Of a stretch of DNA of 13,947 bases, positions 2,610 through 13,947 are shown piece after piece. Position numbers and translations under genes: made by a program. Under the pieces are notes generated by a model. That model was not told the DNA's origin. It saw only the letters and a list, made by a program, of their open reading frames with translations, and ran no database searches. The stretch lies in contig JAZDIN010000049.1 in NCBI GenBank assembly GCA_043804895.1, forward strand, positions 1 to 13,947, in the 5' to 3' direction. Every line of letters begins with the position of its first letter. Position 1 is the first letter of the stretch. Source of the DNA: Candidatus Altiarchaeota archaeon (lineage in GTDB: Archaea > Altiarchaeota > Altiarchaeia > IMC4 > SCGC-AAA252-I15).

Positions 2610-3809
2610 CTACTTTTGGACTAGTCTTTGGTAGGCGTCTTCGAGTTGTTTGTTTATGGTTTCTGTTTTGTATTCTTTTTCAACGTGTTGTCTGCAGGCT
2701 TCTCCCATGTCCAGTCTCACGTAGGGGTTTTTCACGAGGAGGCTTAGTTTGTTTGCTAGTTCTTCAACGTTTTTTTCTTTCACTAGGAAGCCGGTTCCGC
2801 CATCGACAATGACCTCATCTATCCCGTTTCTCCTTGTTGATATGGCTGGGAGGCCGCTCGCCTGGGCCTCTAAAAGTATTGTCGGTATCTCCCCCTCGTC
2901 TTCCGAGATTAAGTTCGGGGCTATCAACACGTCAGAGTCGTACAGGGTTTTGGTAATCTCCCCCTTTTTTTCCCCTCCGATGAGATTTACTGTGTCGTTA
3001 ACGTCCAATTCTGCAATGACTTCCTGGAGGTGTTTCCGAAGCGGCCCGTCTCCGATGATGGTATACTCCATGTCTCCGTGTTCGTCCAATACCTTCGCGA
3101 ATGCGCGTATCCCGTATTCGACGCCGCTTTCCTCCACGAGGCTGGCTATTGTTGTGACCCTTGTTGTGCCGCTTCCTCGCATCTCCCTCACTTTGTATGG
3201 GAACTTCTTGCGGTCCACACTTATATGGTTCACCATGATCTTGTCCTTCCCACAGCCTAATCTGATAAGCTCTTCCCTCATGTGTTCGCTTACGGTGATT
3301 ATCAGATCAGCCTTCCTGAAGAGGGGCATGTATAATCCCCCCCCGGCTCTCCTGGCGTTGGCGCTCACGTTATTGTCGTATAATGACGCGACCAGACTAC
3401 ACCTGAAGAATCCGATTTCCTTAAGGAGTGAACCTGTTAGGCAGTTTTTCCTGAAGTGGCAGTGGACTATGTCAAACTTATCCCCTATGAATGGAGTGGA
3501 ATAGTATAGGAGTCGCAGGGACAGCGCATGCCACCCGTACTCCAGGAAGTTCAGGGAGGATATGGTGTGGAAGGGGCTTCTCAGGAGGTTCCTAAAGAAC
3601 AGGGGAAAACCCTTCACTGCTCTCATAATCCACCCTTCCGAAAACCCCAAATAGTGTATCCTACTGTCCTGATAAACCTCTATATCCTTCGGCTTAGACT
3701 CGCAAATAACCGTAACCTCATGGCCCATCTCCAAAAGGCCTGTAATCTGATTCAGTATGAAATCTTCAGAGAGCGTCGAGAACTCCCCGACTATGAAAGC
3801 GATTTTCAT
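2610..3809 (-). CDS. GT4 glycosyltransferase, WcaL/AmsK-like, with degenerate catalytic motifs
   Basis: MKIAFIVGEF...SEDFILNQITGL, DIVHCHF, IIGDGPLR and LLEAQASGLPAIST match the WcaL-like GT-B architecture; 399 aa intact ORF. Confidence 0.9.
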   Translation of the reverse strand: MKIAFIVGEFSTLSEDFILNQITGLLEMGHEVTVICESKPKDIEVYQDSRIHYLGFSEGWIMRAVKGFPLFFRNLLRSPFHTISSLNFLEYGWHALSLRLLYYSTPFIGDKFDIVHCHFRKNCLTGSLLKEIGFFRCSLVASLYDNNVSANARRAGGGLYMPLFRKADLIITVSEHMREELIRLGCGKDKIMVNHISVDRKKFPYKVREMRGSGTTRVTTIASLVEESGVEYGIRAFAKVLDEHGDMEYTIIGDGPLRKHLQEVIAELDVNDTVNLIGGEKKGEITKTLYDSDVLIAPNLISEDEGEIPTILLEAQASGLPAISTRRNGIDEVIVDGGTGFLVKEKNVEELANKLSLLVKNPYVRLDMGEACRQHVEKEYKTETINKQLEDAYQRLVQK

Positions 3810-3871
3810 GATTCAATATTTTACATTCTTTGTTGCCTCTGTTAAAATACAGGCTACTTCAGAAGTAGAGT

Positions 3872-4996
3872 TCATTCGAACGTCTTGAACACTCCGGTCA
3901 GTGTCTTCTCCATCGCGTCCCAGCTGTATCTCTCCTGGCATCTTCGTCTTGCCTCAAGACCGCATCTTCGTGCCTCCTCCGGGTTGTCCAGGACATACTG
4001 TACCGTCCCAGCAAGTTGTTCGATTCCCCCGGGTTCAACCACCCACCCGCAACCGTCAAGTATCTCTGGGATGTCCGACACTCTCGTGGCGACTATCGGT
4101 TTGCCCATGGCCATGGCCTCGAATATCTTCCCAGGTAATTGCGCTCTTGTGAATAATTCATCCCTTTGCGGCAGCACGACCATGTCTGACATGCAAAGCA
4201 GCTCAGGCATCCTCTCATGCGGGAGTAGGCCAACATACTTGATGTGTTCTTCTTTCCTTTCCAATAGTTTGTCCAGGTGAATGTTTCTTTTACCTGCTAT
4301 AAGAAGCTGCACGTCCTTCCTTCCTAACCTCTCAAGCGCAAGGGCTAAATCATCCAGTCCCTTGTGCGGGTACGCTGTGCCTGTGAACAGGACGACTTTT
4401 TTGTCCTGCACCCCCCATCTATCCCTGATCTCCTCCCTGTTGAATCTTTCCGGGTCGAACATGGAGCAGTCTGCACCGTGGGGGAGTTTGACCCCTCCAA
4501 AACGCTTCTGCAGGAAGTCTGAGACGACAGTGATACTATCAGCCTGGCTGGAGAGGTGTTCCATTAGCCTGAAGTATGCCCTGCAGTTAACTGAGTAGGA
4601 CGTCCCGATGGTGTGGTGGAACATCCCCCAAAGGTTCATGGTACTGAACATCGCGGTATCCCAGTCTTCGATGTCAAGGACTACCGGAGTTTTCTTCAAC
4701 AGCTTGGATAGTAGGCCTACGCCGTAGCTTGTTGGTGTAGGTTTGAACGCGTAGATGACTTTTCCTTCAATACTCTTAATCAGTCTCAGGATGTTTGGGG
4801 TCACCACAGGGAGCCAGGAGTTGAGCGGCTTCACACTCTTGTAGTTGAACTCCCCCCTATACGGTTCGTATATTCCGTCTCCGAAGATGGGGCCCAACAC
4901 CTCCACCTCGTATCGTCTTTCAAGGACCTTCGCTATAGGGTATGTCCTCACCATGGAATGCGATGACAGGTCCCAAACCAGCAAAGATACCTTCAC
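3872..4996 (-). CDS. GT4 family glycosyltransferase
   Basis: FTGTAYPHKG, SDMVVLP and PGKIFEAMAMGKPIVAT motifs. Start reassigned to GTG at 4996 (GTGA overlap with the flippase stop, G-rich RBS upstream), giving 374 aa. Confidence 0.9.
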   Translation of the reverse strand: MKVSLLVWDLSSHSMVRTYPIAKVLERRYEVEVLGPIFGDGIYEPYRGEFNYKSVKPLNSWLPVVTPNILRLIKSIEGKVIYAFKPTPTSYGVGLLSKLLKKTPVVLDIEDWDTAMFSTMNLWGMFHHTIGTSYSVNCRAYFRLMEHLSSQADSITVVSDFLQKRFGGVKLPHGADCSMFDPERFNREEIRDRWGVQDKKVVLFTGTAYPHKGLDDLALALERLGRKDVQLLIAGKRNIHLDKLLERKEEHIKYVGLLPHERMPELLCMSDMVVLPQRDELFTRAQLPGKIFEAMAMGKPIVATRVSDIPEILDGCGWVVEPGGIEQLAGTVQYVLDNPEEARRCGLEARRRCQERYSWDAMEKTLTGVFKTFE

Positions 4997-6438
4997 CTCA
5001 GACCCCCTAGAATCTTCCGGAATTCGTCGAACAATTCCCTTCTGCACAGGTACAATGCTGCTAGATAAGAGATTGCTGATGAGGAGGCTACTGCAAGGAA
5101 TTTTACGATTACGCTGAATGGCAAGATTGCATTAGCTAGGTTTGCTGCAGTGAACATCACAATCACACCAAGGATTGGGGCGGATATAACCCTTAAAAAA
5201 TCCCTATACTCTACCTTGATGGTGCTCCTCAACTCCCTCACAATCAAAACCAATGATAGGCCGCCAGCAAACAAAACAGAAAAAGAAACGCCAATTATCC
5301 CGAACCTCATTGTTAATGGATAGATGGTCAAGGCCATGGCAGCCAACTGGACTCCCGACAGCATAGTCTGGACTTCAGGCCTTCCGATACTGTATAGCAC
5401 TGGACCGACCGTCGCGTTTAATGACCTCACCGCCCCATACAGGCACAGGATCTTTATCGCCGGGACCATCGGCATCCACTCTTGCCCAAGGAACGTCCTC
5501 GTGAACTCAGGAGCCAGGATGAATATCAGGCCTGCCATTAGGAAGGATACGAATGCTGTGGCGCCAAGGGCCTTCAGGTAGGCTTGACGTAGTTTCGACA
5601 GCCTGTGCTGGAGTTTCGAGTATGTCGGGAACGTGACCTGCGATATGACATTCGTCACCTCAGTTGCTGGAGTGTTTGAGATGAGGTATGCCATCTGGTA
5701 TAATCCTAGCGCTGTTGCGCCAATCAGTTTTCCAACGACTATGTTGTCCCCCTGGGTTATGAGGAAGATGAGGACGCTCGAGCCTAACACCCATTTTCCG
5801 AAGCCGAAGAGTCCCCTAGCCCTCCTTAGGTTAAGGTTGAAGCTCGGCCTATATGGGTGCACTAGGTAGCTCACGATGCATCTTGTTAAATTGCCTGCCA
5901 CGTATCCTAGGGCGAGTGCCCAGACGTTTCTGAAAACGATAGCTGATGACACCGCGATAGTGAAATCCGCGGCTGTTCCTGCGAACTGGTATGTGAATTC
6001 CCTCCTGAAATCAAGGTCCTTCTGGAAGTATATGACTCCCACATTGATGAGGGACTTGAACAATACTGCCACTCCAACCGCCTGGATTATCGTCTTGCCC
6101 TCAGGCACGTTGAAGAATCCGGCGAAATACGGCGCAGTGAAGAACAGGGTAGTGAATAGTATGAGCCCCCTTATTACGGAAACAGTCCACGCAGTGTTCA
6201 GGTACCTCCTTATGTTTGCGCTCTTCTGTATGAGGGCGGTCTGGAATCCAGTTTCGGTGAAAGTCTCCAAAGCCGTCATAGTCAGGAGGGCGACACCCAT
6301 GAGGCCGAAGTCGTTGGGTGCTATGATGCGTGCAAGGACGACCAGCCGGGCTGTGTTGAATAACACTTGCAGCACCCTCAGCGCGAAAACCCACATACTC
6401 CCCTTAACAACCTTCTTCCTCAGCAGGCTTTCGTCCAT
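4993..6438 (-). CDS. wzx: Oligosaccharide flippase, Wzx/MOP family (WzxC-like)
   Basis: 481 aa multi-pass protein; VLARIIAPNDFGL, G-x3-ALIQK, DNIVVGKLIGATALGLY-x-MAY and FPTYSKLQ are WzxC-like motifs; sits within a GT cluster. Confidence 0.92.
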   Translation of the reverse strand: MDESLLRKKVVKGSMWVFALRVLQVLFNTARLVVLARIIAPNDFGLMGVALLTMTALETFTETGFQTALIQKSANIRRYLNTAWTVSVIRGLILFTTLFFTAPYFAGFFNVPEGKTIIQAVGVAVLFKSLINVGVIYFQKDLDFRREFTYQFAGTAADFTIAVSSAIVFRNVWALALGYVAGNLTRCIVSYLVHPYRPSFNLNLRRARGLFGFGKWVLGSSVLIFLITQGDNIVVGKLIGATALGLYQMAYLISNTPATEVTNVISQVTFPTYSKLQHRLSKLRQAYLKALGATAFVSFLMAGLIFILAPEFTRTFLGQEWMPMVPAIKILCLYGAVRSLNATVGPVLYSIGRPEVQTMLSGVQLAAMALTIYPLTMRFGIIGVSFSVLFAGGLSLVLIVRELRSTIKVEYRDFLRVISAPILGVIVMFTAANLANAILPFSVIVKFLAVASSSAISYLAALYLCRRELFDEFRKILGGLR

Positions 6439-6464
6439 CCCTTATTCATTCACCCGAGGCTAAA

Positions 6465-6557
6465 ATATATCGGATAGGGACTATCTTGGACTTGGATTTT
6501 GGTATTCCCTATCCGATATATCGAATAATCCTGAAGTTTCACTTTCAGGATTATTCG
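6465..6557. repeat. Two abutting perfect inverted repeats (16-bp and 14-bp stems)
   Basis: ATATATCGGATAGGGA (6465-6480)/TCCCTATCCGATATAT (6506-6521), then CGAATAATCCTGAA (6522-6535)/TTCAGGATTATTCG (6544-6557). Confidence 0.9.
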
Positions 6558-7658
6558 CTATAACCTTAGTCTGAGGCGTTTTTCAACTAACTCGTTTAAT
6601 GCGTTGAAGCTGTTCTGTAGGGTGTAACTTGAAGCATGCCTCTTGGACAGGATGCTCAGTCGTTGGTAATACTCCTCATCCTCGTACAGTTTGTTAATCT
6701 CTTCAGCCCATTTGTCCACATCGTCTGCTGCAACTTTTACCGCGGCGTCGCCTCCCATCTCAGATGCGCCGCCAACGTCGCTGACTATGCATGGTATGCC
6801 GCTCACCATAGCCTCCGGGATTATCCTTGGGGAGCTGTCTGCCATGTCAGAGGGGACTATAACGATTCGGGACTTACTGTAGGCTTCTCTCATGTCCTCC
6901 ACGAAGCCGAGGTATTCGACGTTCTCCTCTTTGGTGAGCCACTGGACGTCTTTATCAACTTTCCCTGCTAGGACGAACTTCCTCCCCCTAAGCCTTTTCA
7001 CAAGCTTTGACACAAGCTCCACTCCTTTGTGTTTCGTCGGGTTGACGAACAGTACGGCATCCCCATGTTCTTCGACGCGGCAGCTTTCCAGGTCCATCAG
7101 GTTAGGCACTACGTCGCAGACCCTCCCGGTGTAGTGTTCCACGACCTTCCGCATGAAATCCGTCTGTGCGATTACCATGTCCGCGCTTCTGATGGCTTCC
7201 CTGTTGCGGCTGTAAATAAGCTGATAGGCAGGGTGTAGAAAAAGCCCCCTCACCCCCTCGCACTTCCAGCAATTGTGGTTGCATTCGAAGACGTTCCTGT
7301 GTTTGAATGAGTCAAGGCAGAAGTGTTCGAAGCTGCGGATGTAGAAAAGACACGGTACCCGTTTCCTCTTGCACCAGAATACTGTGGGTGCTGCAGCGTT
7401 CACTTGCGTGATAATCAAGTCTGGCTTGAAGCCAAGGCCATCCAGATACCTGCTCCAGAAGAGGTTTATGTAAAGGATGTTATTGGGGCAGGAGACTTCA
7501 TGGACTTTTATACCATTCCACTCGTAGACGCCTTTGCTTCCCCTGGAGACGACGTGCACCTCATGTTTCTCAGCTAGTCTCTTCAAAAGCGTCTGAGCAC
7601 TTATCTCAGCCCCCCCGACATCGTTTCGGAAATTCTGCGCAGAAAAGATTATCCTCAT
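6558..7658 (-). CDS. GT4 family glycosyltransferase with Cys-rich insert
   Basis: N-terminal GGAEIS, VNPTKHKG, D-x7-E (DSSPRIIPE) and AMVSGIPCIVSDVGG; C114-x11-C126-x3-C130-x2-C133 insert. Confidence 0.9.
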   Translation of the reverse strand: MRIIFSAQNFRNDVGGAEISAQTLLKRLAEKHEVHVVSRGSKGVYEWNGIKVHEVSCPNNILYINLFWSRYLDGLGFKPDLIITQVNAAAPTVFWCKRKRVPCLFYIRSFEHFCLDSFKHRNVFECNHNCWKCEGVRGLFLHPAYQLIYSRNREAIRSADMVIAQTDFMRKVVEHYTGRVCDVVPNLMDLESCRVEEHGDAVLFVNPTKHKGVELVSKLVKRLRGRKFVLAGKVDKDVQWLTKEENVEYLGFVEDMREAYSKSRIVIVPSDMADSSPRIIPEAMVSGIPCIVSDVGGASEMGGDAAVKVAADDVDKWAEEINKLYEDEEYYQRLSILSKRHASSYTLQNSFNALNELVEKRLRLRL

Positions 7659-7708
7659 ATTAGCATATGCTATCTGATAGTTAAATCAGCTGGGGGATAA
7701 TAACTCAT
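7659..7708. promoter_or_regulatory. Compact divergent promoter region
   Basis: 50 nt between divergent ATGs; TTAAAT at 7681-7686 is equidistant from both starts; perfect palindrome TAGCATATGCTA at 7661-7672. Confidence 0.5.
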
Positions 7709-8869
7709 ATGGCTCTATGGGATGCTGTTCGGAAGATGCAGATTCGAACACTCGTCTTCTCAACCCTGCTTCTATACTTCATCGCTCTCTCATCGTACTC
7801 GATTGTCTGGACTGAAAGCCATAACCTGGATTTGACGGTGTTCGTCCACGCAGGCGAAAAACTAGGTTTGGAATTCCCAGGAGTCTACACGTATCCTGGC
7901 TCCGAAGGCTATGACGGCCAGATATATCTCCTGATTGCCGAGCATCCACTTGATCTGTCTAAGATGCGGGAGGTTGATTCGGAACAGTGCATCTACTACC
8001 GTTACCAGCGCATCCTATATCCGCTCACCGTTCATGCGCTCTCGCTGGGTAGCATAAGGCTGATGCCCTACATGATGCTCCTCGTCAACCTAGTTTCTGT
8101 CCTACTATCCACCGTCGTATTCCATAAGCTACTCTCACTGTCGAAACATCCTCTTGCCTACTCTCTCTATCTGCCGATGACAACAGGTTTGTTCCTCTCA
8201 GTGCTTCTTGACTTGACTGAGCCCATGTGGGTCCTCTTCATTTTAGCGGCGTTTTACTTCCTCAGTAGGGGCGAGCATGTGAAATCAGCGGCGTTCATAT
8301 TACTCGCGTCCTTCACCAAAGAGACCACCCTTCTCCTGGTTGTTCCGCTCGTTCTCCATTACCTCTATATCCGCGACAGTAGAACTGCGATCGTATTCTT
8401 AGCATCATTGGTTCCATTCCTAATGTGGCAGGGTGTGCTGTTCTCAGTGTTCGGTTCTGTCCCGTTGCTGTATTCCATGACGTTTTCGACCGACTACCAG
8501 TGGCTCTATGACTCATTACTCTCAAACCTAACTTCGCCTCAGATTCCAATGCTTCCAGTATACTTGATTCTTGCGACCATCCCTGCAGCAATTGTCGTAT
8601 CACTGTCAGCTTTCAGGAGGAACAAGTCTGCAGTGACGACCGTCCTTTTGGCCAATTCTATGCTAATACTACTCCTTCTCGTGAAGAAGATACCCTGGGA
8701 GGATGTCTTCGCAGCTTCGCGGACTATACTGCCTCTGGCCCTAGTAGCGCTCATATACCTTGCAGAATCTGGTGACAGAAAGACCCACTACGTGCTTTTA
8801 CCCTCAGCTGTGTTGACTCTCCTCCTATCTGTGTTCTACCTAATTAAGGCGGTGTCAATATTAGTCTAA
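7709..8869 (+). CDS. Polytopic membrane protein, GT-C-like (lipid-linked sugar) glycosyltransferase / cell-surface glycopolymer formation protein
   Basis: One N-terminal TM helix, then an external loop with GYDGQIY and YRYQRILYP, followed by many TM helices with LTEP and TKET motifs typical of GT-C fold proteins. An alternative start at 7736 is possible. Confidence 0.7.
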   Translation: MALWDAVRKMQIRTLVFSTLLLYFIALSSYSIVWTESHNLDLTVFVHAGEKLGLEFPGVYTYPGSEGYDGQIYLLIAEHPLDLSKMREVDSEQCIYYRYQRILYPLTVHALSLGSIRLMPYMMLLVNLVSVLLSTVVFHKLLSLSKHPLAYSLYLPMTTGLFLSVLLDLTEPMWVLFILAAFYFLSRGEHVKSAAFILLASFTKETTLLLVVPLVLHYLYIRDSRTAIVFLASLVPFLMWQGVLFSVFGSVPLLYSMTFSTDYQWLYDSLLSNLTSPQIPMLPVYLILATIPAAIVVSLSAFRRNKSAVTTVLLANSMLILLLLVKKIPWEDVFAASRTILPLALVALIYLAESGDRKTHYVLLPSAVLTLLLSVFYLIKAVSILV

Positions 8870-8873
8870 CATC

Positions 8874-9950
8874 ATGAAGGCCCTCATACTGCACGACTAC
8901 CTGGACAATATCGGCGGGGGGGAGAAGTTGATGCTGGCTCTCGCCCGTGAGGTTGGTGCTGACTTCGCGACGTTGGATTATGATAGTAGGGTGGTTGACG
9001 ACATGGACCTTACTGGGGTGAATGTCATCAACCTAGGGTCAACTCCTAAGCTGCCGCCCCTCAAGCAGATTGCAGCATCCATGAAGTACAGTCTTTGTGA
9101 CCTCAGAAGAGACTACGACTTTTTCATCTTCAGCGGCAATTGGGCCCACTACGCCGCCAGGACGCATCATCCTAACCTCTGGTACTGTCACACCCCTGTT
9201 AGGGCGTTCTACACAGACTATGAGAATATGGCTCTTAGGATGGGGTGGCAGAGCACGTTATTCAGGTTGTGGGTTACAGTCCACCGGAGGTTGGACGGAC
9301 GTTCCGTCAGGAATGTGGACAAGATACTCGTAAACTCCAAAAATACGCAAGGCAGGGTCAAAAGATATTATGGCCGCGACTGCGAAGTAGTCTATCCTGG
9401 CATAGACACTAAGAGGTTCGGTTATAAGGAGTCCGGGGATTTCTGGTTGAGCGTGAACCGCCTGTACCCTGAGAAGAGGGTTGACTTACAGGCTGATGCT
9501 TTCCGGATGATGCCTGACGAGAGGCTGGTTGTCGTCGGCGGGAACCTCGCAGGCGACCACTCGAACAAATATGTCGCGAAACTATTGAGAAACAAGCCCG
9601 CAAATGTTGAGTACCGTGGGCGCGTGCCAGAGGATGAAGTAATAGACCTCTACTCCCGCTGTAAAGGGTTCATCTGCACAGCTTTGGATGAGGATTTTGG
9701 GATGACGCCTGTGGAGGCCATGGCGTCTGGGAAGCCAGTTGTTGCGACACGTGAGGGAGGCTACCTGGAGACTGTGGTGGATGGCGTGACTGGCGTGTTC
9801 GTAAACGCGAATGCCCTCGACATCAAAGCTGCGGTGAGAGAGGTTGGCGGCGACCCAGGAAGGTATCGGAGAGCATGCGAAAAACGCGCCCTCCTATTCG
9901 ACTTCAAGGTTTTTGTTGAATGTATGAAAGGACATGTTTCCGACATATAA
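8874..9950 (+). CDS. GT4 glycosyltransferase, WbaZ-like (putative mannosyltransferase)
   Basis: HDYL...GGGEK, YCHTPVR, VNRLYPEKRVD and EDFGMTPVEAMASGKPV are WbaZ-like signatures with an intact E-x7-E. Confidence 0.92.
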   Translation: MKALILHDYLDNIGGGEKLMLALAREVGADFATLDYDSRVVDDMDLTGVNVINLGSTPKLPPLKQIAASMKYSLCDLRRDYDFFIFSGNWAHYAARTHHPNLWYCHTPVRAFYTDYENMALRMGWQSTLFRLWVTVHRRLDGRSVRNVDKILVNSKNTQGRVKRYYGRDCEVVYPGIDTKRFGYKESGDFWLSVNRLYPEKRVDLQADAFRMMPDERLVVVGGNLAGDHSNKYVAKLLRNKPANVEYRGRVPEDEVIDLYSRCKGFICTALDEDFGMTPVEAMASGKPVVATREGGYLETVVDGVTGVFVNANALDIKAAVREVGGDPGRYRRACEKRALLFDFKVFVECMKGHVSDI

Positions 9951-9983: not shown

Positions 9984-10697
9984 TTGTTTGATGAAGCTAA
10001 AGCGGGCATGATAGATAACCTGAAAAAGGAGATAGCCCGCCTGGAGTGGGAGGAGCAGCTTCTTCGAAAAAGGGATGACCGCCTCAGATGGGAGGAGGAG
10101 ATGCTCCAGATGGAGGACGGCCTGAAGGTTCGTGGCGGACTGTTGATAGACAAAATGCCTCCAGGGACAGTGGGTTCCACGCATTCGGACCAAATTTCAA
10201 AGGCCTCATCCACCACCGTCGTGCAAATGCCTGATGAAGTCTCACTCGAGTTAGGCTCAACCTACCTTCTCTTCGACCAGAGTATCGAGAAGAGTACGCG
10301 CCTGTTCAAAGCCGAAATGGATAAGGGACTGAAAGGACTGTACATTACCCGCGGCAACCCAAACCAGGTAAGGAAACTCTACGATTTGGGTGAGGCTAGG
10401 GTGTGTTGGCTCACGAGCGTCCGGGCCAGTGATGGTATGATGACAGTCTCAGGCCTTCAGGAGTTGAGCATACTTGTCAGCAACTTCATAGACGAGAACA
10501 ACAATAGCGTGATACTCTTGGATGGTCTTGAATACCTGGTGAGCAACAACGATTTTCCCATAGTGCTTCGGTTGCTGCAACAGATAAGGGATAAGGTCAG
10601 CACGTCCGAGTCTAAGATGCTGATCCCCATTAATCCAGACGCTCTTGATGGCAGGCAGCTCACCCTTTTGGAGCGCGAATGCCACACAATCAAGTGA
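9984..10697 (+). CDS. DUF835 domain protein (inactive KaiC/RecA-fold module) with N-terminal coiled coil
   Basis: GLYITRGNP, VCWLT, VILLDGLEYLVSNNDF, LQQIRDKV and L-x-LLERE are DUF835 motifs. TTG start preceded by GGTGA (9973-9977); ATG at 10008 is an alternative. Confidence 0.85.
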   Translation: MFDEAKAGMIDNLKKEIARLEWEEQLLRKRDDRLRWEEEMLQMEDGLKVRGGLLIDKMPPGTVGSTHSDQISKASSTTVVQMPDEVSLELGSTYLLFDQSIEKSTRLFKAEMDKGLKGLYITRGNPNQVRKLYDLGEARVCWLTSVRASDGMMTVSGLQELSILVSNFIDENNNSVILLDGLEYLVSNNDFPIVLRLLQQIRDKVSTSESKMLIPINPDALDGRQLTLLERECHTIK

Positions 10698-10711
10698 AAC
10701 CGGCTTTTTGG

Positions 10712-10746
10712 CGAAACCGCTATTTATTTATACTCGTTGGTACCAA
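10712..10746 (+). promoter_or_regulatory. Probable promoter of the archaellum cluster/leader RNA with palindromic operator
   Basis: CGAAA followed by TTTATTTATA (10723-10732), then the perfect palindrome TTGGTACCAA (10737-10746); predicted TSS near 10755. Confidence 0.55.
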
Positions 10747-10754
10747 TTAACTAT

Positions 10755-11027
10755 TGGGGGGTGTCCTCTAGTTGTAGCTATCAGTTGTTGATGTGAAATT
10801 GCGTCAGGCTGATAGTAAAGAGGCGTCCTTGCTACGTGTAATCTCAGCTGGTGCGTAAGCCTGCTGGATTATAAACCTTAGGTGGCTAGGATGGTGTCAA
10901 AGAGGTCTGGCGCAGTAGCGCCGGTGGGGGGGGTAATATTGGAAAGCATTATCAGATTCTATCCTAGATTGTTGTTAGCTGAAATTTCTCCTTGCGTTAG
11001 TCCTACAAAGAAGGGGGGGGTGGTCAG
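10755..11027 (+). ncRNA. Candidate structured 5' leader or ncRNA of unknown family
   Basis: Hand-folded consecutive helices at 10757-10830, 10837-10873 (GUAA loop), 10886-10967 (multibranch) and 10985-11019. Many G-U pairs favour the + strand. Confidence 0.45.
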
Positions 11028-12701
11028 ATGATAAAGGAGCTCCTAGATGGGATAAAGTCCAGGCTTAAGGGAGTCGGTGAGAAGCCGACCACGCTTCCCC
11101 CTGTCGGGGGTTTACCGCCAGCGCAAGTGGAGACTCAGCCTGCGGCTCCTGCTGCGCCAGCTACTGCACCGTCTACTCCTTCGACAGAGGACTTCACTGC
11201 CCTTTTGGGTGGTGGCGGGGACACTGAAGAGTTGCAGAATAAAATAAAAACCTTAGAGGATAAGACCACAAAACTTGAGTCGACAGTCAAGGAGACCCTT
11301 GACATGACAAAGGAGAACCGTGACAGGCTTGACAGCATAGACTCTAACATGAAGAAGTTCATATCCCTATACGAGCTGGTCACCAACCAAATAAACCCAT
11401 TCGTTGATACAGCCCAGCCGTTCAAGAAGGCTGCAAATTTACCTAAGCCTGTGGAATCTGAGGAGGAACCTAAGCCTGTGAGGGAGAAACCTAAGCATGT
11501 GAAGGAGGAACCTGAGTATGTGGAGGAGGAACCTAACTCAGAGGATGTTGTGGTGTCGCCACTCGAGGATATGGTGAAGCCTGAGCCGAAGCCCCAGCCG
11601 AAGCGTGAGTTGAAGCCTGAACCAGTCACCGAACCCGCTGATGGATCGGAGAAGGTGATGTTCCTCCAGTCTGTGAAGGACGGTAACGCTTCGTTCGTGC
11701 TCGAGTGGATAACATCGCTTGTGAGCAAGGACGGCAACATAGAACACAACACAAAGCTCCTGAAGTACCTCTGGGAACTGGGGTGGATAACGCCGAAGGC
11801 TTATGAGGCTCTCATGCAACACATTCAGGCTCTAGCGCAGGCTGGGAGGATGGTAGCGCAGCCTCAGCGTATACCGATGACAGTTGGTGTGCCGTCAGGG
11901 TTTTCCAACACCCCCCCAACTTCATTTTCCCCAGGTAATGTGAGGACGCCGTTCCCATTACCTCCACAGGGGGCAAACGCCGACAACCTAATACCGGTCC
12001 TGGAGTGGCTGAGGTACCTTGTCGACAAGATTGGTTACACCGAGGCATTGGAAGTGCTCAAATACCTTGTGCAACTCGACTGGATAACTCCTGAAGCTCA
12101 TGCTGCGCTCTTGAACTACATAGACAAGTCAGTGCAACCAAGTCAGCTGCACAAGATGCAGTCCAGTCAGGTGCCGCAGTGGCAGAAACCCGAGTCTAGG
12201 GTAACGTTGACTCCGAGACAGATTCCAACTCCTGGAGAATTCATGAGAGTCAATGAGTACAGGATACCCATACAACCCACGGAACAGATGCCTGTTCCGA
12301 TACAACCTCAGCAGCAAGAATACTCCCCTCAGGCGCAATACCAGAAGCCAAGGCGGCAGGTGCCTGTGACGCCGCAGCCGGATGCGATAATCCCACTCAC
12401 CGAGTTGGGTTCTGATATAGAGTCGTTGGCTATCGTGCTTGAGTGGATAAGGTACATGGTGGACCGGGCTGGGGTTAACGGGGCGAAGGAGATATTCAAC
12501 TACTACCTGAACATCGGATGGGTGGACGAGGACGTCTACCAGCAGCTTGTGAAGTACGTGGAGGGTATCAAGGTGAGTGAGGAGGAGAGGGTGGGCTACC
12601 AGCCTACAATCGAGGACCATGCCACCTCATTGTTCTTCATAAGCAAGCTCAAACACATGGAGTTGAGCGATAAGGACGTAAACTCCATGTTGGGGAAGTA
12701 G
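11028..12701 (+). CDS. flaCDE: Archaellum switch/accessory protein: FlaC (ArlC) domain fused to three FlaD/E (ArlD/E)-type repeats
   Basis: Coiled coil ending SLYELVTNQINPF (FlaC signature, aa ~67-126); three VLEW...Y...(G/D)W(I/V) repeats starting at aa 224, 324 and 470; the last also has EDHATSLFFI. The composite symbol is descriptive. Confidence 0.85.
   Translation: MIKELLDGIKSRLKGVGEKPTTLPPVGGLPPAQVETQPAAPAAPATAPSTPSTEDFTALLGGGGDTEELQNKIKTLEDKTTKLESTVKETLDMTKENRDRLDSIDSNMKKFISLYELVTNQINPFVDTAQPFKKAANLPKPVESEEEPKPVREKPKHVKEEPEYVEEEPNSEDVVVSPLEDMVKPEPKPQPKRELKPEPVTEPADGSEKVMFLQSVKDGNASFVLEWITSLVSKDGNIEHNTKLLKYLWELGWITPKAYEALMQHIQALAQAGRMVAQPQRIPMTVGVPSGFSNTPPTSFSPGNVRTPFPLPPQGANADNLIPVLEWLRYLVDKIGYTEALEVLKYLVQLDWITPEAHAALLNYIDKSVQPSQLHKMQSSQVPQWQKPESRVTLTPRQIPTPGEFMRVNEYRIPIQPTEQMPVPIQPQQQEYSPQAQYQKPRRQVPVTPQPDAIIPLTELGSDIESLAIVLEWIRYMVDRAGVNGAKEIFNYYLNIGWVDEDVYQQLVKYVEGIKVSEEERVGYQPTIEDHATSLFFISKLKHMELSDKDVNSMLGK
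11460..11537 (+). repeat. 21-bp coding tandem repeat (about 3.7 copies) in the FlaCDE linker
   Basis: GAGGAGGAACCTAAGCCTGTG / AGGGAGAAACCTAAGCATGTG / AAGGAGGAACCTGAGTATGTG / GAGGAGGAACCTAAC, encoding EEEPKPV-REKPKHV-KEEPEYV-EEEPN. Confidence 0.85.
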
Positions 12702-12730: not shown

Positions 12731-13177
12731 ATGGGTTTCAGCACCATAACTGCTCAACTTATATTCTTCATTGCTGTGGTACTGGTTTCAGCAGGCGTCA
12801 TAGCCACATTAGGGTATTATATCGACCAGGTCATGAATGCGATGTCTGACAAGCAGCAGTACATAACTGGTCAGCTTCGCACTGACATAGTCATAACGAA
12901 CATATACAACAGCTCCGGCGATCTCATAATCTATGTCAAGAACGTCGGCAACAGCCAGCTTAAGACCAACTGCACTGAATTGTACGTTGACAGCGGGTGG
13001 ACTGACGTCGCAGAAAACGAGATTACCGACCCCACAAGCGGAGACCCACTATCGTACTGGGACCCTGAGGATACGATAAAACTATCCCCCGCTCCATCAA
13101 CCTATGACTCAACCCTTTCGATACATGAGGTCAAGTTCGTGACATGCAACGGCATATCGGATTCAGAAAATTTCTGA
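12731..13177 (+). CDS. flaG: Archaellum stator protein FlaG (ArlG) family
   Basis: N-terminal TM helix QLIFFIAVVLVSAGV; LRTDIVI, IYVKNVG, LYVD, WDPEDT and VTCNG are archaellin-like beta-sandwich motifs of FlaG/FlaF. Confidence 0.8.
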   Translation: MGFSTITAQLIFFIAVVLVSAGVIATLGYYIDQVMNAMSDKQQYITGQLRTDIVITNIYNSSGDLIIYVKNVGNSQLKTNCTELYVDSGWTDVAENEITDPTSGDPLSYWDPEDTIKLSPAPSTYDSTLSIHEVKFVTCNGISDSENF

Positions 13178-13215
13178 AAACACCTCCTTTTTACTCCTGC
13201 AGGCGATAGATTAAC

Positions 13216-13662
13216 ATGGGTCTGTCGACGATATACGCCAATGTCATTTTGGTCGTATTGGCTTTGACGGTGTCCTCGGCAGTCTGGTTCGCATATTCCA
13301 ACTACCTGGTCCACGTCACGCCTGAAGTCAAGGCCCAGGGTGATTATCTTAAGGAGCGTGTGGACACGAGCATAAAGTTGACTTCAGTGAGTGATGATCC
13401 GACACTCACTTACCTGGTGTTGAACGATGGGAAGACGATGTTGGACGTCAACTGCACTGACTTTTACGTCGACAGGGAGTGGTTGAGTAGAAGCGACATA
13501 GACTCCATCACCTTCTCTGACTACACCTTCGACCCGTACCTCTGGAATCCTGGCGAGAGCATAACGGTTGTCTTCGACTATTCGCCTGCTGCCGGCACCC
13601 ACGAGGGTCGGGTAGTCACCTGCAACGGCGTGTCAGACAGCATGATATTCACAACAACCTAA
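13216..13662 (+). CDS. flaF: Archaellum stator protein FlaF (ArlF) family
   Basis: MGLS start and TM helix; ERVDTSI, VLNDGKT, FYVD, LWNPGESI and VVTCNGV motifs. The F versus G assignment is by eye. Confidence 0.75.
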   Translation: MGLSTIYANVILVVLALTVSSAVWFAYSNYLVHVTPEVKAQGDYLKERVDTSIKLTSVSDDPTLTYLVLNDGKTMLDVNCTDFYVDREWLSRSDIDSITFSDYTFDPYLWNPGESITVVFDYSPAAGTHEGRVVTCNGVSDSMIFTTT

Positions 13663-13663
13663 A

Positions 13664-13947
13664 ATGGGCTTTAGTTCCGTAATATCCGCATTAATTGTTG
13701 CAACGTTCATAATACTCGTTGGGTCTGCAATCTTCCTTGGGCATTCAGGCTACACAAAGGCGGAGTTGGGTTTGAAATCGTACGAGAGAATGTCCGAATA
13801 CGGAAGGAGGACAGCCATAGCATACTCCGACTTTAACTGCACTAATACAACTGACACAATAATGAACGTGACGCTCTACATACTCAACGACGGCTCCTCC
13901 AGCATCCGCACAGACTGCATCGACCTCCTCATAGACGACGGATGGAT
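13664..13947 (+). CDS. Third FlaF/FlaG-family paralogue, 3'-truncated by window edge (not in ORF track)
   Basis: Hand translation MGFSSVISALIVATFIILVGSAIFLG...RRTAI...VTLYILNDGSSSIRTDCIDLLIDDGW has the same MGFS-TM, (I/V)LNDG and C-x-D-x2-(I/V)D pattern as the two preceding genes; starts 1 nt after the flaF stop. Confidence 0.75.
   Translation, partial: MGFSSVISALIVATFIILVGSAIFLGHSGYTKAELGLKSYERMSEYGRRTAIAYSDFNCTNTTDTIMNVTLYILNDGSSSIRTDCIDLLIDDGW

Follow-up and report, generated by a model that had tools for sequence, protein, structure and literature searches.

A FlaC protein with three D/E modules, probable sole cytoplasmic scaffold of the archaellum in a Candidatus Altiarchaeota archaeon

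We have analysed a 13,947-nucleotide stretch of DNA from a Candidatus Altiarchaeota archaeon (the window; contig JAZDIN010000049.1 of assembly GCA_043804895.1), in which an open reading frame (ORF) at 11028..12701 on the forward strand, starting with ATG, encodes a 557-amino-acid protein (P0001) that joins one FlaC domain to three D/E domains of the archaellum machinery. The window is the entire contig C49 of a 71-contig, 1.58-Mb genome estimated to be 88.7% complete, and the only three matches to Arch_fla_DE in that whole genome all fall within this ORF. As this is the single FlaC/D/E-type gene detected in the genome, one polypeptide must supply all such modules. We think it probable that the gene encodes the sole ArlC/D/E-type cytoplasmic scaffold protein of an Altiarchaeota archaellum that works without chemotaxis. 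Its architecture, which adds two truncated D/E half-domains in cis, is a lineage-specific variation within a family whose tendency to fuse was already known.

Results

One FlaC domain and three D/E modules in a single chain

A Pfam scan of the whole protein gave one FlaC_arch match (PF05377; amino acids 72-126, E 3.9e-12, 46.8 bits against a cut-off of 27.8) and three stretches of Arch_fla_DE (PF04659) summing to 145 bits, which is the count of one plus three that an earlier, sequence-only reading of the window had expected from a profile scan; a separate scan of the N-terminal 141 residues gave 49.8 bits for FlaC_arch. Scanned by itself, each repeat exceeds the Arch_fla_DE cut-off of 21 bits, but only repeat 3 (85.1 bits, positions 6-95) spans the whole 96-position profile, repeat 1 (28.9 bits, positions 7-65) and repeat 2 (43.9 bits, positions 12-62) each covering part of it. 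Thus, repeats 1 and 2 are real yet truncated copies of the D/E domain that retain its N-terminal two thirds only, and both their assignment to Arch_fla_DE and their description as truncated were correct. Profile-profile comparison of the clade alignments with hhalign matched repeat 1 to repeat 3 with 95.7% probability (E 1e-8), and repeat 2 to repeat 3 and repeat 1 to repeat 2 with 99.1% each, whereas two linker segments used as negative controls reached at most 0.1%.

The motifs picked out by eye lie where they had been placed. VLEW occurs at nucleotides 11697, 11997 and 12435 (amino acids 224, 324 and 470), and the YY-x2-IGW and DH-x2-SLxFI tail takes the form of YYLNIGW (nucleotide 12501) and DHATSLFFI (nucleotide 12615) in repeat 3 only. 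In the alignment, the C-terminal helix with the DHxxSLxFI motif is missing from repeats 1 and 2, which carry KYLWELGWITP (nucleotide 11763) and KYLVQLDWITP (nucleotide 12060), respectively, matching the proposed KYL-x2-L(G/D)WITP pattern. The linkers, which had been called Pro/Glu- and Pro/Gln-rich, are E/P/K-rich at amino acids 131-205, P-rich at 277-317 and Q/P-rich at 369-452. The spacing of exactly 100 amino acids between the first two VLEW motifs is real in the window but is no rule; it is incidental, because repeat 1 and repeat 2 are 81-110 amino acids apart across 20 homologues. A simple hydropathy scan, made with no dedicated predictor, found no transmembrane helix in the 557-residue protein, since no 19-residue window reaches the Kyte-Doolittle threshold of 1.6 (maximum mean 1.38); thus the protein appears to be soluble, with no membrane anchor predicted. 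The features of the gene and of its neighbours are listed in Table 1.

Table 1. Features of the three-module gene and of its neighbouring archaellum genes in the window.
Feature	Position	Strand	Evidence
arlC-(D/E)x3 gene	11028..12701	+	Pfam FlaC_arch and 3 Arch_fla_DE; 21 homologues
N-terminal amphipathic helix, amino acids 2-17, MIKELLDGxKSRLKG	11031..11078	+	model helix; conservation 0.77; hydrophobic moment 0.51
FlaC coiled-coil domain, helix amino acids 66-122, Pfam amino acids 72-126	11223..11405	+	PF05377 E 3.9e-12; conservation 0.77
Linker 1, E/P/K-rich, predicted disordered	11418..11642	+	composition; pLDDT <50; conservation 0.37
D/E module 1, truncated, N-terminal sub-domain only	11643..11870	+	Pfam; hhalign; model; conservation 0.76; own clade
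Linker 2, P-rich, conserved QRIP motif	11871..11939	+	alignment; conservation; model; composition
D/E module 2, truncated	11940..12158	+	Pfam; hhalign; model; conservation 0.71; groups with module 1
Linker 3, Q/P-rich, conserved IPxP and YRIPIQP motifs	12159..12374	+	alignment; conservation; model; composition
D/E module 3, full-length canonical Arch_fla_DE, DHxxSLxFI tail	12375..12683	+	Pfam; domain model; tree
DUF835 protein, conserved upstream neighbour	9984..10697	+	PF05763 E 3.8e-30; weak FlaH-like NCBIfam match, E 0.015
ArlG/ArlF-family stator protein, 148 amino acids	12731..13177	+	PF01917; NCBIfam ArlG 60.4, ArlF 58.9 bits
ArlF-like stator protein, 148 amino acids	13216..13662	+	PF01917 28.6 bits, slightly below cut-off; NCBIfam ArlF 46.9 bits
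Third ArlF-like ORF, cut by contig end	13664..13945	+	NCBIfam ArlF 26.3 bits, E 6.7e-6

The truncated modules match the FlaC domain in conservation

When 5.8 billion clusters were searched by word index, 22 proteins, the query included, came back at E <=0.001. All are metagenomic; the two that have NCBI names are 'Candidatus Altiarchaeota archaeon', and further cluster members are labelled 'Candidatus Altiarchaeota' or 'Altiarchaeales'. A hidden Markov model (HMM) built from the three window repeats recovered three repeats in 21 of the 22 proteins, the exception (P0021) being a 319-amino-acid fragment, and in all 20 full-length homologues; with a wider HMM the count was 19 of 20, repeat 1 of P0020 being too weak. 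An assembly chimera was considered as the source of the repeats and rejected, as the same arrangement is seen on about 20 independent contigs.

With the fragments P0019 and P0021 set aside, the 20 full-length homologues were aligned and conservation was averaged over the columns of each part. The N-terminal motif and FlaC both reach 0.77, repeats 1 and 2 reach 0.76 and 0.71, and repeat 3 has 0.75 and 0.71 in its two halves, compared with 0.36-0.37 for the three long linkers. The truncated repeats are thus constrained as strongly as the other modules, and the term 'degenerate', which the sequence-only reading had applied to them, does not hold. These values also bear on the idea that modules 1 and 2 are what is left of fused ArlD/ArlE copies, now in decay and acting only as spacers, with FlaC and module 3 alone doing the work. 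Such decay would explain why both modules lack the C-terminal DHxxSLxFI helix, why module 1 scores as low as 28.9 bits with Pfam and only 10-25 bits in P0020, P0022 and P0023, and why P0022 has lost an otherwise invariant Trp. However, conservation of 0.76 and 0.71 against 0.36 in the linkers is maintained among 20 homologues with identities down to 35%, both modules have many invariant columns, and in the tree described below the modules of each type group as orthologues, which means long-term purifying selection. We therefore consider decay highly improbable.

The two truncated modules group together

The individual modules were placed in an unrooted IQ-TREE phylogeny of 67 rows over the 58-column core common to all modules, in which the bootstrap had not fully settled; it includes 11 of the 23 clade proteins and, from others, only P0024-P0055 and P0099. 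As had been proposed, the repeats could thus be compared one by one. Module 1 forms a clade of its own (support 100/99), and a supported branch (96/90) has modules 1 and 2 together on one side. On the opposite side are module 3, which pairs with a canonical D/E fragment (98/99) inside a large group of ordinary single D/E domains, and the D/E domains of the single-module Altiarchaeota proteins P0025 and P0027. On this tree the truncated modules 1 and 2 appear to share one origin that predates the split between families f1 (that of the window's genome) and f5; with so few columns and no root, the tree is limited to this statement of shared origin. A more ambitious proposal is that modules 1 and 2 are an old and distinct paralogue class, which arose once, was duplicated in tandem before the f1/f5 split and has been kept under selection since, and that they replace the separate ArlD and ArlE subunits, so that one polypeptide with a fixed 1:3 ratio of modules builds the whole cytoplasmic ring of a chemotaxis-free archaellum. 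We regard this as possible, although rather doubtful.

The three-module form is confined to one clade in the samples searched

In the phylum, a D/E domain was found in 7 of 61 genomes, namely four of family f1, two of f5 and one of f6. The four f1 genomes each have three Pfam Arch_fla_DE matches within one ORF, the two f5 genomes have two Pfam matches to which the window-repeat HMM adds a weak third, and the f6 genome has a single match in a 380-amino-acid frame.

An exhaustive search of 1.84 billion representatives at 50% identity, run in HMMER with a D/E profile of 13 rows (seven full-length and six truncated modules), gave 804 proteins at E <=0.001, and the results described here rest on the best 150 of these 804. 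Three D/E stretches were present in six of the best 150 (P0011, P0013, P0015, P0017, P0020 and P0023), all of them members of this clade. We then rescanned 166 proteins, comprising the 22 from the clade search and the others among the best 150, with local HMMs; the FlaC model is clade-specific and under-counts FlaC outside the clade. One FlaC with three D/E domains was found in 20 proteins, all in the clade, and three D/E domains with no FlaC in one fragment. One FlaC with two D/E domains was found in three proteins (P0020; P0026, where the second match is doubtful at 12 bits; and P0099) and two D/E domains with no FlaC in one further fragment, while the others had a single D/E domain, either with one FlaC (46 proteins) or with none (95).

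At the genome level, the Pfam model detected a D/E domain in 180 of 401 genomes from the phylum around a Methanohalobium metagenome-assembled genome (MAG) and in 134 of 401 from the phylum around a Thermoplasmatales MAG, and across these 802 genomes no single ORF had three matches. Genomes with three or four matches had them in different ORFs, including in a repeated search of five genomes, and for G475 and G637 the D/E matches listed already lie in different ORFs, so that one ORF can contain two at most. The Pfam model missed the weakest f5 repeat, so that very divergent extra modules elsewhere could escape it, and Methanococci and Thermococci, being outside the genome-level sampling, were covered by the representative search and the literature. 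Taken over the best 150 of 804 representatives and the 802 genomes of two phyla, we found no three-module D/E protein outside the clade. A search for related loci in the genome contigs with the whole protein gave no match.

Apparent stand-alone truncated modules in the second sampled phylum (profile positions about 2-65) were rejected as candidates, all six that were fetched being complete domains split by an insertion. These six (L126-L131) are FlaC proteins of 343-517 amino acids with one D/E domain each, in which an insertion of about 35-75 amino acids precedes the C-terminal helix. Because the insertion splits complete domains in this way, the N-terminal sub-domain and the last helix of D/E are separable units.

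The predicted structure is a string of helical modules

The full-length AlphaFold2 model, made from a 20-row alignment, has a mean predicted local distance difference test (pLDDT) of 60.7 and a predicted template modelling score (pTM) of 0.27. Helices are confident at amino acids 2-17, 66-122 (FlaC, a single long helix with pLDDT of about 90), 211-276 (repeat 1), 318-378 (repeat 2) and 464-555 (repeat 3), and pLDDT falls below 50 at residues 16-62, 127-222, 277-317, 378-395 and 409-452. The model thus fits the beads-on-a-string picture of the sequence-only reading, with four confident helical modules, linkers that are predicted to be disordered and no confident packing between modules. When folded separately from a 36-row alignment, module 3 was predicted as a small all-helical domain (pLDDT 87.7, pTM 0.78). 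In a VIA-align comparison of this model with 48,161 chains none reached Z >=5, and the best match (Z 4.8; root mean square deviation 2.6 over 55 residues) was a generic helical hairpin. Foldseek of the full model against the PDB gave no match at E <=0.001, phmmer against PDB sequences gave none at E <=1, and the ESM Atlas gave only ordinary clusters of FlaC plus D/E proteins of 394-428 amino acids. According to a 2021 review, ArlC, ArlD and ArlE had no atomic structure at that date (PMC10117864).

A similar amphipathic N-terminal helix with a Lys-rich patch is present in FlaC-D/E proteins from several lineages (P0022, P0026, P0032, P0033, P0037 and P0060). This helix (amino acids 1-19 of P0001) might be a membrane- or motor-targeting peptide.

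The gene lies in an archaellum setting

The gene is followed by ArlG/ArlF-family genes, with spacings of 30-39 nucleotides, and archaellins and ArlH, ArlI and ArlJ are encoded in the same genome. arlH, arlI and arlJ lie together on contig C62 (3387-7588), and nine further archaellin-type genes are found on five contigs (C68, C70, C47, C39 and C25). The names ArlG and ArlF are tentative, because the NCBIfam scores (Table 1) are below the equivalog cut-off of 110 bits. In another f1 genome (G051), ArlG/F-like genes and a DUF5752 gene likewise lie downstream of arlC(D/E)3, and a DUF835 gene (L029 3131-4120) is again found 5' of it, with an opposite-strand archaellin gene in between. In the window's own genome the DUF5752 orthologue is at the start of C70, before four archaellin genes. 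Since DUF5752 opens C70 and follows the ArlG/F-like genes in G051, contig C49 probably continues into C70. The DUF835 protein, which has two paralogues elsewhere in the genome (C45 and C66), could be a lineage-specific motor partner.

An alternative is that the locus does not encode a working swimming archaellum at all, and is instead a leftover, or a type IV filament system put to another use, with no motor role. D/E domains are present in only 7 of the 61 phylum genomes, family f1 has its archaellum genes spread across contigs, and a comparative paper describes Altiarchaeota as lacking archaella (PMC8407392). However, the genome has a full set of genes (nine archaellin-type genes, ArlF/G-like genes, and ArlH, ArlI and ArlJ without stops). 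Furthermore, the same split layout, with arlH and the D/E gene on separate contigs, recurs in three other f1 genomes, an f5 genome (G008) has arlH-I-J-C(D/E)3-G-F in a single block, and the Alti-2 core genome is reported to include 'flagellar proteins' (Bird et al., 2016, PMC4975002). A non-motor filament system is therefore very unlikely in our estimation.

No chemotaxis partners were detected

The sequence-only reading had called the protein a 'switch', a term that its genomic setting does not bear out. CheF (PF04283), CheW and MCPsignal gave no match in the window's genome, although at 88.7% completeness absence is not proven; positive controls were detected in the expected model genomes. 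CheF was above cut-off in none of the 61 genomes of the phylum, the three sub-threshold matches being in a genus without D/E genes. CheW was found in 7 of the 61, of which six belong to family f6 (6/22) and one to f5 (G009), with none in the 21 f1 genomes. The four f1 carriers of the three-module gene (G000, G038, G034 and G051; completeness 84-92%), the window's genome among them, yielded neither CheF nor CheW, although their incompleteness leaves absence unproven. The organism thus seems to be without CheF and a Che system.

The protein could nevertheless be part of a true switch complex, if the extra D/E modules were to dock a signalling adaptor that replaces CheF and rotation were still regulated. 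Haloarchaeal ArlCDE is reported to bind CheF (PMC7534055, PMC9126983), the extra conserved modules and the linker motifs QRIP, IPxP and YRIPIQP are possible partner sites, and G009, an f5 relative with a three-module gene, carries a CheW-domain gene. Against this stand the lack of any CheF above cut-off in the 61 genomes of the phylum, the failure to find CheW and MCP in the genome itself or CheW in any of the 21 f1 genomes, and the fact that the CheW-bearing f6 genomes are not the ones with D/E domains. We consider a switch complex of this kind improbable.

Within f6, chemotaxis genes and ArlCDE-type genes do not co-occur: Arch_fla_DE gave no match in the six genomes with CheW/CheA-like genes (G014-G018 and G021), and CheW gave none in G011, the only f6 genome that has an archaellum D/E gene.

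Other features of the window

Three ArlF/ArlG-family genes stand in series at 12731-13945, the first scoring slightly better as ArlG and the second as ArlF; the third has 31% identity to a 292-amino-acid ORF at the corresponding place in G051. Two ArlF/ArlG genes are usual, and the order of G then F has been described for arl2-type loci. A 330-nucleotide non-coding gap (10698-11027) precedes the three-module gene. It contains, at about 10722-10731, a TATA-like TTTATTTATA and, immediately 5' of the ATG, a G-rich stretch resembling a ribosome-binding site. In G051 the equivalent gap contains the opposite-strand archaellin gene. An Rfam scan of the window gave no match.

Immediately upstream of the archaellum genes, a cluster at 2610-9950 comprises four GT4-type glycosyltransferases (2610-3809, 3872-5047, 6558-7658 and 8874-9950). 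Also in it are, at 4993-6438, a Polysacc_synt_3 flippase-like gene and, at 7709-8869, a gene of the AZOBR_p60025 family ('cell surface glycopolymer formation'). This cluster may serve archaellin or surface glycosylation. On the minus strand at 1411-2539, two ORFs overlap, one with a HEPN domain (1411-1893) and the other a nucleotidyltransferase (1868-2539; Polbeta/NTP_transf_2 matches), in the layout of a HEPN-MNT toxin-antitoxin-like pair.

Discussion

In the scaffold role that we favour, one chain would supply the modules that are spread elsewhere over ArlC, ArlD and ArlE, or over ArlCE and ArlD. The FlaC coiled coil would oligomerise the protein, and the D/E modules would make contacts with one another and with the motor to form a cytoplasmic ring under ArlH/ArlI, and would perhaps connect a polar cap with the motor. 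As CheF and a Che system seem to be missing from the organism, the protein would be a structural scaffold or anchor and not a chemotaxis switch. This is in keeping with what has been reported in other archaea. For example, in Haloferax volcanii the proteins ArlCE and ArlD are described as mutually dependent and ArlH-dependent for motor placement (PMC7534055), and cryo-electron tomography of Pyrococcus furiosus suggests a cytosolic ArlC/ArlDE ring and a link to the polar cap (PMC8978795).

Several points weigh against the scaffold reading. Oligomerisation, ring formation, docking and the identity of the partners are inferred, and the full-length model, with a pTM of 0.27, gives no arrangement of the modules relative to one another. 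The archaellum genes are spread over several contigs. With a genome that is 88.7% complete, chemotaxis genes could sit in the missing part, and the f5 genome G009 has a CheW/CheA-like gene alongside its three-module gene.

How new the architecture is depends on what it is compared with. The sequence-only reading knew of no described form with one C and three D/E domains, and we found no three-module form outside the clade. However, the novelty was overstated, because CE, DE and CDE fusions 'in various permutations' are already established in the literature. Makarova et al. (2016; PMC4858521) gave a general description of fusions of the ArlC/D/E type, ArlCE, ArlDE and ArlCDE are listed by Jarrell et al. 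(2021; PMC10117864), and other reports concur (PMC8978795, PMC7534055, PMC13705601), the last of them referring to 'various fusion or fission arrangements'. A described form with one C and three D/E domains did not turn up in the portions of the literature covered, which do not amount to a full review.

Some of the closest systems known are in haloarchaea. Like the window protein, ArlCE and ArlD of H. volcanii and Halobacterium salinarum contain both Pfam families, with FlaC fused to D/E, and they are soluble and encoded in the archaellum locus; theirs are reported to depend on ArlH (PMC7534055). They differ in using at least two genes with one complete D/E domain each, in binding CheF and in relaying chemotaxis signals, whereas the window protein has one gene, three D/E modules of which two are truncated, and no CheF that could be found. 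The haloarchaeal protein P0099 (680 amino acids), with relatives in Haloglomus, Halobellus and Halovivax, also has FlaC followed by more than one D/E domain in one chain. However, its two D/E domains are complete and are each other's closest relatives (100/99), and thus point to an independent duplication.

Methanococcus FlaC, FlaD and FlaE, and Pyrococcus ArlC and ArlDE, belong to the same domain families and have the same presumed place in the motor, and arlCDEFGHIJ clusters have been described (PMC10117864); there the modules are on separate polypeptides, whereas the window protein fixes the ratio at one C to three D/E per chain. Closer to home, the single-module FlaC-D/E proteins of Altiarchaeota (P0025 and P0027; G011; 378-380 amino acids) come from the same phylum, have the same layout of FlaC with a C-terminal D/E domain and share the neighbours arlG/F, arlH, arlI and arlJ with the three-module gene, but they lack modules 1 and 2. 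Finally, crenarchaeal ArlX is thought to play an analogous scaffold-ring role around ArlH/ArlI in archaea without chemotaxis (PMC10117864, PMC8978795). ArlX differs in being anchored in the membrane and in matching neither FlaC nor D/E of Pfam, whereas the window protein is predicted to have no transmembrane helix.

If modules 1 and 2 do form an old paralogue class and one polypeptide does build the whole ring, this would be the simplest known one-gene archaellar 'C-ring'. The protein also shows that the D/E domain's N-terminal 60 or so residues can be kept as a separate module; beyond these points it is an incremental domain-architecture variant in a family known for fusions. The locus adds detail to the sparse record of Altiarchaeota archaella. 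As a single chain, the protein could be an easier target than others for expression and structural work on ArlCDE. A natural single-chain version with a fixed ratio of modules, from an organism in which no chemotaxis input was detected, sets scaffolding by these proteins apart from their role in the switch.

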